Positions 4,322 to 9,885 of a stretch of DNA of 64,000 nt are shown here, piece after piece. The position numbers were made by a program, and so were the translations under genes. The stretch covers positions 26,416 through 90,415 of the forward strand of contig JASLMH010000001.1 in assembly GCA_030746635.1 (NCBI GenBank). The letters are read 5' to 3'. Below the pieces are notes generated by a model. It did no database searches and was not told the origin of the DNA. It worked only from the letters and a program-made list of their open reading frames with translations. Numbering within the stretch: position 1 is the first letter of the stretch; the number at the start of each line of letters is the position of its first letter. This DNA comes from Alphaproteobacteria bacterium. GTDB taxonomy: Bacteria; Pseudomonadota; Alphaproteobacteria; GCA-2731375.

Positions 4322-5848
4322 TCACCAGGCGTCGATCGCCCGCTTGCGGCCGGTGCGCGGCGGCGGCGGCGGCATCGCCTCCAGGGTGCGGGCGAGGAAA
4401 TGCCGGGTATCGGCCGGGTCGATAATGTCATCGATTTCGAACTTGGCCGCGACCTCGACGCCGGTGTTCATACGCTTCAAATCCTCGGTGGCGCGGGCAT
4501 GGATGGCGGTGCGTTCGGCCTCGTCGGCGGCGGCCTCCAGTTCCGCCCGGTGGGTGATATTGACCGCTCCCTCCAGGCCCATGCCGCCGAACTCGGCGGT
4601 CGGCCAGCCGATGCACAACGCCGGGTCCAGGCCGCGCATGCCCATGACATAACCGCCCAGGCCATAGGCCTTGCGCAGGATCACCGTCATGAACGGCGTG
4701 CTGGCGCTGGCCAGGTTGATCAGCAGGCGCCCGGAATGCCGCACCAGGGCGGTCTTCTCCACCTCCGGCCCGACCATCAGCCCCGGCGTGTCGCACAGGA
4801 ACAGCATCGGGATGTCGTAGGCGTCGCAAAGCTGGATGAAGCGGCTGGCCTTGTCCGAGGCGGGGCTGTCGATGGCGCCGGCCAGCACCATCGGCTGGTT
4901 GGCGATCACTCCGACCGGCCGCCCTTCGATGCGGATCAACGAGGTGACGATGGCGCGGCCGAACCTCGACCGCAGTTCCAGCACCGAATCCAGATCGGCA
5001 ATCCCCTCGACCACGCGGCGGACGTTATAGGCCCGGCGCGGGTTCTCCGGGATCAGGGTGCGCAGTTTCTCGCTATCCGGCGCCCGCCAGTCGCCGAGGG
5101 GCGCCTGGAAATAGCCAAGGTAGCGCTTGGCCGCGGCGATCGCCTCGGCCTCGTCGGCCACCGCCAGGTCGACCACGCCGTTGTCGACCTGCACCTTGAT
5201 CGGGCCGATGTCCTCCGGTTGGAAGCGCTCGCCCAGGGCGGCCTCGACCAGGGGTGGGCCGGCCATGCCGATGTTGGCCTTCGGCGTGGCGATCAGTAGA
5301 TCGCACATGCCGGCCAGGTTGGCGTTGCCGGCGAAACAGCGGCCGGTGACGATGCCGACCAGGGGCGCCAGACCGGACAGCCGGGCGAAGGCCATGAAGG
5401 TCGTCAAATCCAGGCCCAGGCCGGAACCAACGCTCAAATCGTGCGGCCGGGCGCCGCCGCCCTCCAGCCAGCAGATCAACGGCAGCCGCAACTGCTCGGC
5501 CAGCTCGAAGATGCGGTCGTGTTTCTTGTGGTTGATCAGGCTCTGGGTGCCGGCATAGACGGTGTAGTCATAGGCCATGACGGCGCAAGGCCGGCCGTCG
5601 ACCTGACCGGTACCCATCACCAGACCGTCGGCGGCGCCCGCCATCTCGGGCCGGGCCGGCCGCGACAGGGCGCCGTATTCGGCGAAACTGCCCGGATCGA
5701 GGAAGGCGTCGACCTGTTCCCGGGCCGTCCAATGGCCGGTCTTGCGCCGCTTCGCCACGGCCTCGGGCCGGGCCGCGTCCAGGGTCGCCGCCCGCAGCCG
5801 GCGGACTTCCTCGACGTCGTCGCGCGACGGCGTCTTCTTATCACTCAC
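4322..5848 (-). CDS. Acyl-CoA carboxylase carboxyltransferase (beta-type) subunit, stand-alone
   Basis: TAREQV..FLDPGSF, YDYTVYAGT, EGGGARP, FLCDTPGLMVGP, LRKAYG, IDDIIDPADTR motifs. Confidence 0.9.
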   Translation of the reverse strand: MSDKKTPSRDDVEEVRRLRAATLDAARPEAVAKRRKTGHWTAREQVDAFLDPGSFAEYGALSRPARPEMAGAADGLVMGTGQVDGRPCAVMAYDYTVYAGTQSLINHKKHDRIFELAEQLRLPLICWLEGGGARPHDLSVGSGLGLDLTTFMAFARLSGLAPLVGIVTGRCFAGNANLAGMCDLLIATPKANIGMAGPPLVEAALGERFQPEDIGPIKVQVDNGVVDLAVADEAEAIAAAKRYLGYFQAPLGDWRAPDSEKLRTLIPENPRRAYNVRRVVEGIADLDSVLELRSRFGRAIVTSLIRIEGRPVGVIANQPMVLAGAIDSPASDKASRFIQLCDAYDIPMLFLCDTPGLMVGPEVEKTALVRHSGRLLINLASASTPFMTVILRKAYGLGGYVMGMRGLDPALCIGWPTAEFGGMGLEGAVNITHRAELEAAADEAERTAIHARATEDLKRMNTGVEVAAKFEIDDIIDPADTRHFLARTLEAMPPPPPRTGRKRAIDAW

Positions 5849-5863: not shown

Positions 5864-7063
5864 TCAAGGCAACAGAACCGTCTCGAACGGATAGCTGGAC
5901 AGCGGCCGATGGCCGTCGGCGGTGACCAGGATCTGCTGCTCCAGTTTCACCGACTCGCGGCCGCCGTCGCGGCCGACCAGGGACTCCACGCACAGGGTCA
6001 TGCCTTCGCGGATGGTGCCGTCGTAGCCGATACGGTCGAAATCCTCGAGATAGGGGATGGCGGGATATTCGTCGCAAAGACCGATGCCGTGGGCCAGGCA
6101 GGAATAGCGGTGGCCGATGCATTCGGGGGGCAGTTGGTAGGCGATCTCGGCGAATTCGCGGAACGCCAGGCCCGGCTTGATCAGCCCCAAATTGTAGTGC
6201 AGTTGGGCGTGACCGATGGCGTAGAGCTCGCGCTGTTCGGGGCTGGGCGGGCCGTCGCCGCACAACCAGCTTCGCGAGATATCGGCGCAATAGCCGTTCG
6301 GGCCGACCAGGTCGGTGTCGAAGCTGACCATGTCGCCGGCCTCGATCACCCGGTTGGAGCATTCCTGGAACCAGGGGAAGGTGCGGGGGCCGGAGGTCAA
6401 CAGGCGGGTTTCGATCCATTCGCCGCCCAACTCGATATTGCACTGGTGCAGGATCGACCACAGGGCGTTTTCGGTGATGCCGGGCCGTAACGCCGCCTGC
6501 ATGCGCCGCATGCCCTCCTCGCAGGCCTCGATCGCCTCCATCATCGCCTGGACCTCGACCTCGGCCTTGATCACCCGGGCCAGTTCCATCACCTCTTCGC
6601 CATCGAGGATCTCGATCTGCCGCTCGGCCAGCGCCCGGTTGCCATGGGGATCGACCTTGTCGACGGCCAGGCGTCGGTTGCCGCCGCCGTGCAGGCGCAG
6701 CAGTTCGGCGATCTCGTCGGCCCAGCGCCCGGCCAGTTCCTCCGACCGCTGACCGGCCTCGAAGTAGAAATAGGCGGTGGCCGGGCGGATTTCGTCGATC
6801 ACCTCGATATCGGCCGACAGATGTTCGCAGTTGTGGAAATCGAACAGCACCACCGGTCCCTCGGTGGGGATGAAGGCGTAGCGGACCTTGTTGTGCATGG
6901 TCCACACCTGCATGTTCGAGGTATCGGTGGCATAGCGGATATTCAGCGGGTCATAGAGCAGGATGCCGGCATAGTCCCGCTGCCTGAGCTGCTCCCGCAC
7001 CCGTTCCAGCCGATAGGCGCGCAGCGCCGGCCGATCGACCGCTGAATCGTGAAATACCGTCAT
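5864..7063 (-). CDS. dddP: M24B-family protein most like DMSP lyase DddP
   Basis: YDPLNIRYATDTSNMQVW, GGEWIETRLL.SGPR..PWFQEC, SFDTDLVG, CADISRSW, HGIGLCDE, LCVE, KLE segments match the DddP subfamily as I recall it. ATG 7063 follows a GAGG RBS. Confidence 0.72.
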   Translation of the reverse strand: MTVFHDSAVDRPALRAYRLERVREQLRQRDYAGILLYDPLNIRYATDTSNMQVWTMHNKVRYAFIPTEGPVVLFDFHNCEHLSADIEVIDEIRPATAYFYFEAGQRSEELAGRWADEIAELLRLHGGGNRRLAVDKVDPHGNRALAERQIEILDGEEVMELARVIKAEVEVQAMMEAIEACEEGMRRMQAALRPGITENALWSILHQCNIELGGEWIETRLLTSGPRTFPWFQECSNRVIEAGDMVSFDTDLVGPNGYCADISRSWLCGDGPPSPEQRELYAIGHAQLHYNLGLIKPGLAFREFAEIAYQLPPECIGHRYSCLAHGIGLCDEYPAIPYLEDFDRIGYDGTIREGMTLCVESLVGRDGGRESVKLEQQILVTADGHRPLSSYPFETVLLP

Positions 7064-7091
7064 CGCCCGCCTCGCCGCCGCCGCTGCCACG

Positions 7092-7766
7092 TCATTCGAT
7101 GATGACGTGTTCCTTGGTGATGATGAAATCGATTTCGTCCCCGGTATCGAGGAAATTCGGCTCGTCGGCGCGGGTTAGGTCATAGGCCTCGGAGCGGGCA
7201 GATTCCCGCATCGCCGCCACCGAATCGAACCAGGTGATGGCACAGCCGTCGATCGCGGGCTGCCGGCCGTCGCGATAGCCGCCCGGCAGGCAATGGCTTT
7301 GCACATAGCGCCGGATCACCGGGATCTCGGCCGCGATGGGCCCGTGCACCTGGCGCCAATAGCGTTGGAACTCATCGACCGGCATGCCCGGCTTGCGATG
7401 CACGAATTCGACGTTCTTCACGCCGCCCTCGGGGATCGGGCCGTCCTTGATGACATGTTCGTTGGTCAGGATCAGGGCCATCGAGGGGCGATCGATGAAC
7501 ACCTCCTCGTCGGCCTGCACGGCGGCGTAGGCATCGGACCCCGCCATGCCGCGCAACACGTCCACGTCGTCGACCCAGATCTCGGCGATGCCGTCGTAGA
7601 CCAGCTCGCCCTTGCGGTAGCCGCCCGGCAGGGCATGGGATTGGATATAGCGGCGCAGGTTCGGCAGCCGCTTCACAACCTCGGCATGGTCGCCGCGCCA
7701 ATAGCTCTGGAAATCCTCGACCGTCATGCCGGTCTTGCGTTTGATGCAGGTGATCGCCTTGATCAT
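7092..7766 (-). CDS. Protein with two tandem EthD domains
   Basis: Two internal copies of RK.GM..E.F..YW...H....RRY.QSH.LPGGYR...DG....W.D. Confidence 0.88.
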   Translation of the reverse strand: MIKAITCIKRKTGMTVEDFQSYWRGDHAEVVKRLPNLRRYIQSHALPGGYRKGELVYDGIAEIWVDDVDVLRGMAGSDAYAAVQADEEVFIDRPSMALILTNEHVIKDGPIPEGGVKNVEFVHRKPGMPVDEFQRYWRQVHGPIAAEIPVIRRYVQSHCLPGGYRDGRQPAIDGCAITWFDSVAAMRESARSEAYDLTRADEPNFLDTGDEIDFIITKEHVIIE

Positions 7767-7862
7767 GGTTTCCTCCCGATTTCTCGGCCTCCCAGCCTGT
7801 CATTGAAGCCGTCGCGCGGCAACCATTCCCCGCCGCCATCGCAGGCAAGAACGACGGCGGCG

Positions 7863-7878
7863 TTAACGCTGCGTTAAC
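7863..7878. promoter_or_regulatory. CtrA-type binding box TTAA-N7-TTAAC
   Basis: gTTAAcgctgcgTTAACc matches on both strands, in the divergent intergenic region between the EthD gene and the PAS kinase. Confidence 0.7.
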
Positions 7879-7992
7879 CAAAGTTGCCGAAAATTAAGGA
7901 AGATAAATGCCCCTCAGGGCCAATTCGGCCGGCGTGGCGCGAACGCCGGTCAAACCGTCAGACAAAGCGCGCACGGGCACGGAATTCAAAGC

Positions 7993-9885
7993 ATGGGCAT
8001 GAGCAAGCGCAAGGTCGTCGATGTCCTGCCGGTCGCCGGAGACGATGCCACGTTTTCGGCCGGGCAGAGTATCGAACACTTCCCCATTGGCATGGCTGTC
8101 TTCGACGCCGACTACCGCTTGGCGGCCTGGAACAGCGCCTATGCGGAAACCACCAGGCCGCCCGCCGAAATCCTCCGCGTCGGTGTGCCGATGCGGGAGA
8201 TGTTGCTGAAACTGGCGGAACGAGGGGTCCTGGGCCCGGGCGAGGCCGAGGAATTGGCGCAGACCAGGTTCGACGAGTTGCGAGGTGGCGCCGATCAGCG
8301 CGAATACGTCTACCCCGACGGCCGCATCGTCGAGGTGCGCACCACCGCTCCGCCGGGCGGCGGCCTGTTCGTCGCCTGCATCGACGTCACCGCGAAACGA
8401 CAGGCCGAGACCTCCCTGCGCGAGAGCGAACAGCGCCTGCGCGACTTCGCCGATACCGCCGGCGACTGGCTGTGGGAAATGGGTCCCGATCTCCGCTTCA
8501 CCTACATGTCGGAGCGGGTGGCAGACTTCACCGGCAAACCCGCCGCCTGGCATATCGGCAAGACCCGCACCATGGTGTCCGACCCGGAGCGGGACGAAGC
8601 GGCCTGGCGCCAGCACTTCGAGGATCTGGAACAGCGCCGGCCGTTTCGCGATTTCCAGTTCTTCCGCCGGGACGACAACGGCCGCAAGCAGTGGTTCAAC
8701 ACCAACGGCAAGCCCCGCTTCGACGGCGATGGCAACTTCCTGGGCTATCGCGGCGCCGCCTCCGACATCACGGCGCGCAAGAATGCCGAGATCAGGGTCA
8801 AGGAACTGGCCGCCATCGTCGCCTCGACGGACGATTCGATCTTCAGCGTCAGCCGCGACGGCACCATCGCAAGTTGGAACCCGGCCTGCGAAAGACTGTA
8901 CGGCTACACCGCCGAGGAAGCCATCGGTCAGCGCGGCAGGCTGCTAAGCGGCGACGAGGAGCAGGCACAGTCGCAACAAGCGTTTTGGCAGCAGGTTCTG
9001 CGCGGCGAGCCGGTCGAACAGGTGGAGGTTACGCGCACCCACAAGGACGGCCGCCCCCTGACCATAGCCTTGACCCTATCGCCAATCCTCGATGACGTTG
9101 GCGAAATCGTTGGCGCCTCGGGCATCGGCCGCGACATCACGGAGCAGAAACGCGCCGAGACGTCGATCGCCGATCAGCGGGACGAACTGCAGCGCATGAA
9201 CCAGCAGAAGAACCGCCTGTTCTCGATCATCGCCCATGATCTGCGGACACCGTTCAACAGTCTGCTGGGGTTTTCCGAGATCCTCGCCAGTCATTCCGAC
9301 AACCTCGAACGCAAGGAGGTCGGTGATTATGCCCGGATGGTTCACGAGTCGGCGCAGCAGGCCCACGAATTGCTGGAAAACCTGCTGGAATGGGCCCGGC
9401 TGCAAATGGGCCGGCGGACCAGCGAACCAAGACCGCTGGATGTCACGGCCGCGATCAATGCCGCGCTGAACCTGGCCGGAGCGAATGCCGCGCAAAAGGA
9501 GATCGCCCTGGAGCGCGGCGACATCGCCGTGCTGACCGCCTTCGCCGACCCGGCGATGGTGGAAACCGTGTTGCGGAATTTGGTCGCCAACGCGGTGAAA
9601 TTCACCGACGCGGGCGGCAGCGTCACGGTATCGGCGCAACGCCGGGAAAAAACCATCGCGATCACGGTATCCGACACCGGCATCGGCATCGCGAACGATC
9701 GCCTCGCCGGCCTGTTCGATATGTCCACCGCCACCAGCACCATCGGCACGGCCGGCGAAAAAGGCACCGGCCTCGGCCTGCATCTGTGCAAGGACCTGAT
9801 GGAATTGCAGGGCGGCGACATAGAAGCGGAGAGCACCCCGGGCCAGGGTTCGACCTTCCGCGTCACGCTGCCCTCGGCCATTTGA
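7993..9885 (+). CDS. Cytoplasmic multi-PAS sensor histidine kinase
   Basis: Three PAS-like repeats, H-box AHDLRTP, N-box NLVANAVKFT, DTGIG and GTGLGL. No transmembrane segment seen. Confidence 0.92.
   Translation: MGMSKRKVVDVLPVAGDDATFSAGQSIEHFPIGMAVFDADYRLAAWNSAYAETTRPPAEILRVGVPMREMLLKLAERGVLGPGEAEELAQTRFDELRGGADQREYVYPDGRIVEVRTTAPPGGGLFVACIDVTAKRQAETSLRESEQRLRDFADTAGDWLWEMGPDLRFTYMSERVADFTGKPAAWHIGKTRTMVSDPERDEAAWRQHFEDLEQRRPFRDFQFFRRDDNGRKQWFNTNGKPRFDGDGNFLGYRGAASDITARKNAEIRVKELAAIVASTDDSIFSVSRDGTIASWNPACERLYGYTAEEAIGQRGRLLSGDEEQAQSQQAFWQQVLRGEPVEQVEVTRTHKDGRPLTIALTLSPILDDVGEIVGASGIGRDITEQKRAETSIADQRDELQRMNQQKNRLFSIIAHDLRTPFNSLLGFSEILASHSDNLERKEVGDYARMVHESAQQAHELLENLLEWARLQMGRRTSEPRPLDVTAAINAALNLAGANAAQKEIALERGDIAVLTAFADPAMVETVLRNLVANAVKFTDAGGSVTVSAQRREKTIAITVSDTGIGIANDRLAGLFDMSTATSTIGTAGEKGTGLGLHLCKDLMELQGGDIEAESTPGQGSTFRVTLPSAI

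Follow-up and report, generated by a model that had tools for sequence, protein, structure and literature searches.

The window analyzed here is a 64,000-nucleotide (nt) stretch of contig JASLMH010000001.1 from an alphaproteobacterium (assembly GCA_030746635.1), and its minus strand carries a gene of the M24B type whose product resembles DddP, an enzyme that cleaves dimethylsulfoniopropionate (DMSP) to the climate gas dimethyl sulfide (DMS) and acrylate. In the list of open reading frames (ORFs) the minus-strand frame extends over positions 5864-7090 and gives 408 amino acids (aa) from a GTG. Because a GAGG motif supports the ATG at 7063, this ATG is the likely start, which predicts a protein of 399 aa (5864-7063). 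Homologs are 395-400 aa long with an N-terminus of the form M[TA]VFH, and the 399-aa form is also the gene call in public data. The protein is composed of the Pfam domains PF01321 (creatinase/prolidase N-domain) and PF00557 (M24 catalytic domain). Its gene is intact and is the second of three closely packed genes on the minus strand, in the order EthD, M24, and carboxyltransferase (Table 1).

Table 1. Coordinates of the M24 gene, its operon partners, and the codons of its functional residues in the window.
Feature	Position	Strand	Evidence
DddP-type M24B gene, 399 aa; creatinase/prolidase-like N-domain and pita-bread catalytic domain	5864..7063	-	ORF, Pfam, NCBIfam, PDB match, AlphaFold2 model
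GAGG ribosome-binding site, 6 nt ahead of ATG 7063	7070..7073	-	sequence read
Codon W54, corresponding to Trp95 of RlDddP (sulfonium binding, role from PMC5395565)	6902..6904	-	alignment to 4RZY numbering
Codons D249 and D251 (FDTD), corresponding to metal ligands D295 and D297	6311..6319	-	alignment, ligand list PMC4108388
Codon D261 (CADIS), corresponding to metal ligand D307	6281..6283	-	alignment to 4RZY numbering
Segment RYSCLAHGIGLCD: Y320 (= Y366), H325 (= ligand H371), D331 (= proposed base D377)	6071..6106	-	alignment; roles PMC4108388
E360 (CVE) and E375 (KLE), corresponding to metal ligands E406 and E421	5939..5986	-	alignment to 4RZY numbering
Tandem EthD-domain protein, 224 aa; upstream operon partner; stop 28 nt before M24 start	7092..7766	-	Pfam PF07110 x2, TIGR02118
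Lone carboxyltransferase, 508 aa; downstream operon partner; starts 15 nt past M24 stop	4322..5848	-	Pfam PF01039

Comparative analyses of sequence and structure gave a consistent picture of the family. A phmmer search of the Protein Data Bank (PDB) returned RdDddP (4B28) with an E-value of 5.8e-109 and RlDddP (4RZY) with 4.4e-104, while the best prolidase reached only 3.9e-15 and creatinase 7YTO 1.3e-4. With the NCBIfam DddP model NF043017 the protein scored 439.6-440.2 bits (E 1.2e-131). The other M24 models of NCBIfam (peptidase, DoeA, MetAP) gave at most 44 bits: 26-41 bits for PepQ, PepP, and YpdF vs. cut-offs of 393-630, and 44 bits for the DoeA model NF038259 vs. a cut-off of 575. We also built an AlphaFold2 monomer model, with a predicted local distance difference test (pLDDT) value of 89 and a predicted template modeling (TM) score (pTM) of 0.87. 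In a Foldseek search this model matched four DddP structures with a TM score (TMq) of 0.92, a root-mean-square deviation (rmsd) of 2.4 Å, and E-values of about 1e-45, followed by prolidases (TMq ~0.72, E 2e-25); for DoeA and creatinase the TMq was 0.69-0.75. The protein thus adds a member to the DddP family in its wide sense, and no other M24 enzyme comes as near to it as DddP. Because DddP is far ahead by PDB, NCBIfam, and Foldseek scores alike, “generic Xaa-Pro peptidase” is not the correct subfamily label, which bears out the sequence-only reading of the locus on this point.

The catalytic center was compared with that of the solved enzymes. In the RdDddP structure paper the metal ligands are D295, D297, D307, H371, E406, and E421, and Y366 and D377 are candidate catalytic residues, with D377 preferred as the base (PMC4108388). 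According to a review, a tryptophan and a tyrosine hold the sulfonium group and an aspartate takes the C-alpha proton, no residue numbers being given for the tryptophan and the tyrosine (PMC5395565). The solved mutants 4S00 (Y366A) and 4S01 (D377N) target the tyrosine and the proposed base. We take the sulfonium-holding pair to be Trp95 and Tyr366. At the nine functional positions (4RZY numbering, codons checked) the window protein has W54, D249, D251, D261, Y320, H325, D331, E360, and E375, with Y320 and H325 located within RYSCLAHGIG and D331 within GLCDEYP. Candidate metal ligands had been placed earlier, from the letters of the sequence, in FDTD, CADIS, HGIG, CVE, and KLE, and the tyrosine in RYSCLAHG; alignment to the solved DddPs showed that these are the right residues.

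The full set of nine residues is kept in 90 of the 110 aligned family members, and distant paralogs scoring 290-320 bits have lost W95 and D377. Such second or third DddP-like paralogs (our loci L095-L098) were seen in Hwanghaeella, Mesorhizobium, and a Rhodobiaceae metagenome-assembled genome (MAG). They retain the metal ligands, while Trp95 is replaced by Y or F and the base Asp377 by G, and they appear to form a separate enzyme type.

The window protein is not a canonical DddP. With the canonical enzymes (Roseovarius nubinhibens, Ruegeria pomeroyi; RdDddP 4B28, RlDddP 4RZY/4RZZ/4S00/4S01) it shares the fold, the six ligands, the tyrosine, the aspartate base, and the tryptophan, and its BLAST identity to RdDddP is 45%. 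However, it lacks a conserved N-terminal extension of ~45 residues (NRKIDP...DNDRVEIGPT..AF.EW), the alignment beginning where this extension ends, as well as a 5-residue insert after helix 168-191, and it reads GLCDEYP where canonical DddPs read GLCDEWP. The extension is present in canonical DddP and also in the Oceanimonas DddP1-type and SAR116 (Candidatus Puniceispirillum) proteins, which score 624-635 and 602 bits, respectively, with NF043017, a model whose equivalog cut-off is 600 bits. The window protein is 56% identical to the SAR116 type and 55% identical to Oceanimonas doudoroffii DddP1 and has all of their functional residues; the two differ from it by their scores (602-633 bits), the extension, and their place in the canonical clade.

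A counterpart with a short N-terminus was found in Oceanimonas, the genus of Oceanimonas sp. CHS3-5 (L080). Some genomes of this genus were determined by the NF043017 search to carry second DddP copies of 425-430 bits, matching the profile from positions 52-53. One of these copies (G012:C11:1762673-1763827, L108) is an exact sequence match to UniRef G5CZE7 / AEQ39103.1, the DddP2 of O. doudoroffii, which has 416 aa, scores 429.6 bits, and is without the canonical N-terminal motif. The 633-bit copy of the same genome is DddP1 (G5CZD9). Passages in PMC10989825 and PMC6309047, which cite Curson et al. 2012, describe both DddP1 and DddP2 as functional; of the two, DddP2 is presented as phylogenetically distinct and as more efficient. 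The DddP of a scallop symbiont, 55% identical to DddP2, also cleaves DMSP in E. coli; its ligand numbering (D263 onward) implies an N-terminus ~32 residues shorter than that of RnDddP, and the protein is reported to be ~55 kDa (PMC10989825).

The window protein and O. doudoroffii DddP2 are 54% identical and have in common the short N-terminus (399 and 416 aa), the nine functional residues, the motifs AHGIG, VES, and KLEQQ, and a score under the threshold (440 and 430 bits). They differ in that DddP2 is experimentally active, whereas the window protein is known from its sequence and model. DddP2 is 51% identical to DddP1 and 43% identical to RdDddP, and by these pairwise identities the window protein lies within the range of divergence spanned by proven DMSP lyases. 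Since the validated DddP2, likewise with a short N-terminus, scores only 430 bits, the 600-bit cut-off is not a functional boundary, and the resulting annotation gap touches a whole group of sequences. DddP2 itself is named “DMSP lyase” by UniProt and “M24 family metallopeptidase” by NCBI/RefSeq, the latter because 429.6 bits falls under the cut-off. O. doudoroffii carries, in addition, a third copy (L099, G012:C11:1445469-1446776; 449 aa, 634.8 bits, WP_211284166.1), which is 84% identical to DddP1 and clusters with Psychrobacter DddPs at 90% identity; the literature found for this species names DddP1 and DddP2 only.

On balance, we favor the reading that the gene product is a DddP-type lyase, catalytically competent and of the short N-terminus kind that includes the validated DddP2. 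The protein would probably cleave DMSP in an assay, and release of DMS on expression in E. coli is the outcome we would expect, if with limited confidence. That DMSP is also the main physiological substrate appears doubtful. By analogy to the solved DddPs, the protein would be a homodimer of the M24B pita-bread fold, its second chain giving shape to the substrate tunnel, with a two-metal center, mainly Fe, held by D249, D251, D261, H325, E360, and E375. The substrate, a beta-onium propionate such as DMSP, would bind a metal through its carboxylate, W54 and Y320 would hold the positively charged sulfonium, and D331, acting as the base, would take the C-alpha proton. Beta-elimination would then free DMS and acrylate.

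The habitat counts for a DMSP lyase. An identical protein, encoded in the same operon, is present on TARA_SAMEA2619970_METAG-scaffold_19472 and in the MAG GCA_030744475.1. Because both protein and operon sit on a Tara Oceans scaffold, the source organism is oceanic, and the ocean is a setting where DMSP is available. The earlier suggestion of a marine DMS producer therefore holds for the marine part, while production of DMS was not established.

Several findings in the profile score, the phylogeny, and the gene context weigh against the favored reading, and with them the identity as a DMSP lyase proposed in the sequence-only reading was not established. The protein lies ~160 bits under the NF043017 cut-off (440 vs. 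600 bits), and its match starts at profile position 50, the N-terminal extension being absent; it falls outside the canonical clade, and its surroundings carry no DMSP signal, as described below.

For the phylogeny we computed a careful maximum likelihood tree of 109 sequences under LG+C20+F+G4, with ultrafast bootstrap (UFBoot) and SH-like approximate likelihood ratio test (SH-aLRT) supports, in addition to a quick tree; fungal DddPs and the scallop-symbiont DddP are not among the sequences in the trees. The few names obtained for the 50%-identity cluster representatives were those of Cladocopium and a foraminifer. Canonical DddP, DddP1, and SAR116 DddP form an 18-row clade (support 100/99), nested in a clade of 42 sequences (99/95) that also holds Mesorhizobium, Rhodobiaceae, actinobacterial, and SAR324 sequences, and the window protein is outside both. 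Its own clade has eight sequences (100/99), the others being from Hwanghaeella grinnelliae, Minwuia, and metagenomic contigs (Tara Oceans), and the experimentally validated DddPs in the tree all fall outside this clade. The position of DddP2 varied between the trees. In the quick tree it branches outside the clade that holds the window clade and canonical DddP, while the careful tree places it with the window clade in a group of 31 sequences (88/91), which also contains base-loss sequences (D377V). The last common node of DddP2 and canonical DddP is ancestral to the window clade in either tree. The deeper internal branches are short, and in the approximately unbiased (AU) test an arrangement uniting DddP2 with the 42-sequence clade to the exclusion of the window clade was not rejected (delta lnL 13.1, p 0.255). 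The grouping of DddP2 with the window clade is thus not statistically secure, and that the window clade is bracketed by validated enzymes is our best estimate, not a secure result. The phylogeny against validated DddPs, which had been suggested as a check, gave an answer in neither direction: the canonical validated clade leaves out the window protein, but it also leaves out the validated DddP2, with which the window protein groups loosely.

The gene neighborhoods of relatives were also compared. In 30 of the 88 related loci compared, an MttB-family methyltransferase gene lies no more than a few kb from the M24 gene, often directly upstream and on the same strand, and 27 of the 88 also have a gene for an 810-aa DAO-FAO_M-GCV_T (DMGDH-like) protein. 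The MttB-linked carriers are Minwuia, from the window's own clade, Roseibium, Rhodobiaceae, Propylenella, a gammaproteobacterium, and ~20 Mesorhizobium/Aminobacter species; many of these or of related carriers are soil bacteria, e.g., Mesorhizobium. The M24 genes of such betaine-demethylation clusters (Minwuia, Mesorhizobium, Roseibium, Rhodobiaceae) share with the window gene the residue signature and scores under the threshold (429-481 bits), and the Minwuia copies, members of the same 8-sequence clade, are 66-69% identical to the window protein. The difference is that the window gene has left this context. In its own genome, contig C72 (3464-7366) carries adjacent MttB-family and DMGDH-like genes without an M24 gene between them, and the Minwuia counterparts of this pair, 58-59% identical, flank a DddP-like gene.

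A profile search of the same genome (assembly 83% complete) detected the window gene as the only DddP-like gene, and in this assembly there was no match to a BCCT-type transporter and no cupin-type DMSP lyase. No acrylate genes were seen in the operon and no DMSP-specific genes nearby. Taken as a whole, the gene context does not point to DMSP. The context of the validated enzyme differs as well: DddP2 is flanked by genes for a BCCT transporter and a GbcA-like Rieske oxygenase, with a sigma-54 two-component pair upstream, while the window gene stands between the EthD and carboxyltransferase genes. A LysR regulator and a DAO oxidoreductase were observed further downstream in the DddP2 cluster (L110, 7808-12121).

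The EthD/carboxyltransferase arrangement was considered as a family trait and rejected, as these neighbors recur only in the closest relatives. Locus L003 (79% identity) has EthD, EthD, M24, and carboxyltransferase genes in this order, L008 (76%) has EthD and M24 genes without the carboxyltransferase, and the remaining cases are the Tara scaffold and the MAG. Upstream of the EthD-M24 genes in L003 (654-4444) and L008 (1375-5155) we noted a divergent glutamine synthetase (GS)-like gene (Gln-synt_N_2 and Gln-synt_C), an isochorismatase, a GNAT protein, and a class III CoA-transferase; an ortholog of the GS-like gene (68% identity) is present in the window genome on contig C55. Among 24 genomes of the same family there was no close ortholog of the M24 gene. 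As the best match is only 58% identical, the distribution of the gene is patchy. The G+C content is 0.637 over window positions 6001-8000 vs. 0.675-0.69 in the flanking 2-kb bins, and this mild dip over the EthD and M24 genes fits the patchy distribution.

Regarding the operon partners, a PDB sequence search with the EthD-domain protein gave no match. The best PDB match of the carboxyltransferase is the carboxyltransferase domain of a long-chain acyl-CoA carboxylase (4RCN, E 6e-139), compared with ~1e-75 for PccB. It resembles the corresponding domain of the single-chain long-chain acyl-CoA carboxylase 4RCN, and 5FIF also stands far above PccB; no biotin carboxylase or carrier gene is located near it. 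A role as PccB in the use of acrylate or propionate was thus weakened, and since 4RCN is nearer than PccB, the simple link from acrylate via propionyl-CoA to propionyl-CoA carboxylase (PCC) is unsupported. The genes flanking the operon are housekeeping or unrelated ones (SurA-like PPIase, ArgJ, GNAT, PAS histidine kinase, FtsH), and a scan for promoters and terminators yielded nothing usable.

The most serious alternative is that the same machinery serves another small zwitterion as its native substrate, DMSP cleavage being absent or a weak side activity. Beta-alanine betaine, a proline- or carnitine-type betaine, or an N-methyl amino acid derivative would be candidates, that is, an N-betaine-type osmolyte or a demethylation product, and the organism would then be no meaningful DMS producer through the window gene. 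We regard this as a substantial possibility, although one short of an even chance. It draws on the MttB and DMGDH-like neighbors described above, which recur across several lineages including Minwuia, on the adjacent pair retained on contig C72, and on the fact that even the validated DddP2 has a Rieske oxygenase and a BCCT transporter as its neighbors; yet in its own genome the window gene adjoins no betaine gene. The DddP-like family is also common in soil rhizobia, desert isolates, Actinomycetota, and Chloroflexota. A substrate-profiling preprint from the Tawfik lab holds that the DMSP cleavage of canonical DddP is promiscuous and its native role unknown (bioRxiv 10.1101/168930). On the other hand, in vivo relevance is reported for canonical DddP and SAR116 DddP (PMC5395565; PMC4304780), both DddP2, short like the window protein, and the scallop-symbiont DddP cleave DMSP in E. 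coli (PMC10989825), and the DMSP-specific set (W, Y, and the Asp base) is complete in the window protein. An alternative substrate has been shown for no family member, and the literature search turned up no DMSP-lyase assay with a negative result for the window clade.

Two further explanations carry much less weight. Automatic annotation would make the protein an ordinary peptidase or hydrolase of the M24B type (Xaa-Pro dipeptidase, aminopeptidase P, creatinase, or ectoine hydrolase), and close homologs are indeed labeled “Xaa-Pro peptidase family protein”, “Xaa-Pro aminopeptidase”, or “M24 family metallopeptidase”. The fold and five metal ligands are common to prolidases, but the peptidase, creatinase, and DoeA models give 25-44 bits vs. 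cut-offs of 171-850, PDB prolidases match with E 4e-15 or weaker vs. 5.8e-109 for DddP, and the structural match is TM 0.72 vs. 0.92. RlDddP is, moreover, inactive on Val-Pro (PMC5395565), and D251 (= D297), absent from methionine aminopeptidase, is present here. We consider this explanation very improbable. Even less credible is a non-functional or decaying paralog, to which the patchy distribution and the lack of a close ortholog in same-family genomes (best 58% identical) might hint: the frame is intact, a ribosome-binding site is present, the operon genes are tightly spaced, and sequence and operon are identical in the independent Tara scaffold and MAG. No catalytic residue is lost in relatives at 76-80% identity, and the structural model is confident.

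A broader and rather improbable idea concerns the origin of the family. DddP-signature enzymes may have originated as C-alpha-deprotonating lyases in the catabolism of betaine-type nitrogen osmolytes, with DMSP cleavage as a side activity. The window gene would then have moved from an MttB/DMGDH cluster into a new three-gene unit, in which the tandem EthD protein and the lone long-chain-type carboxyltransferase would process the product as a CoA ester. If this were true, the three-gene unit would be an undescribed small pathway.

The favored reading of the gene as a short DddP-type lyase bears on how dddP is counted. This gene is the DMSP-lyase gene most often counted in ocean and sediment metagenomes. 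Surveys with loose hidden Markov model (HMM) or identity thresholds count sequences like the window gene as dddP, whereas curated annotation calls them peptidases. In one study dddP was assigned to 37.8% of sediment bacteria, largely of Pseudomonas and Mesorhizobium types (PMC7039863). Neither rule tracks function: the curated cut-off drops the validated DddP2, and the loose rule admits lineages with a betaine-catabolism context. As regards the gene itself, the outcome is a modest one, namely a plausible DMSP lyase as judged from its sequence; the gene is chiefly useful as a test case of where “dddP” ends in functional terms. An assay of one member of this oceanic lineage would help to calibrate the share of DddP in bacterial DMS production.

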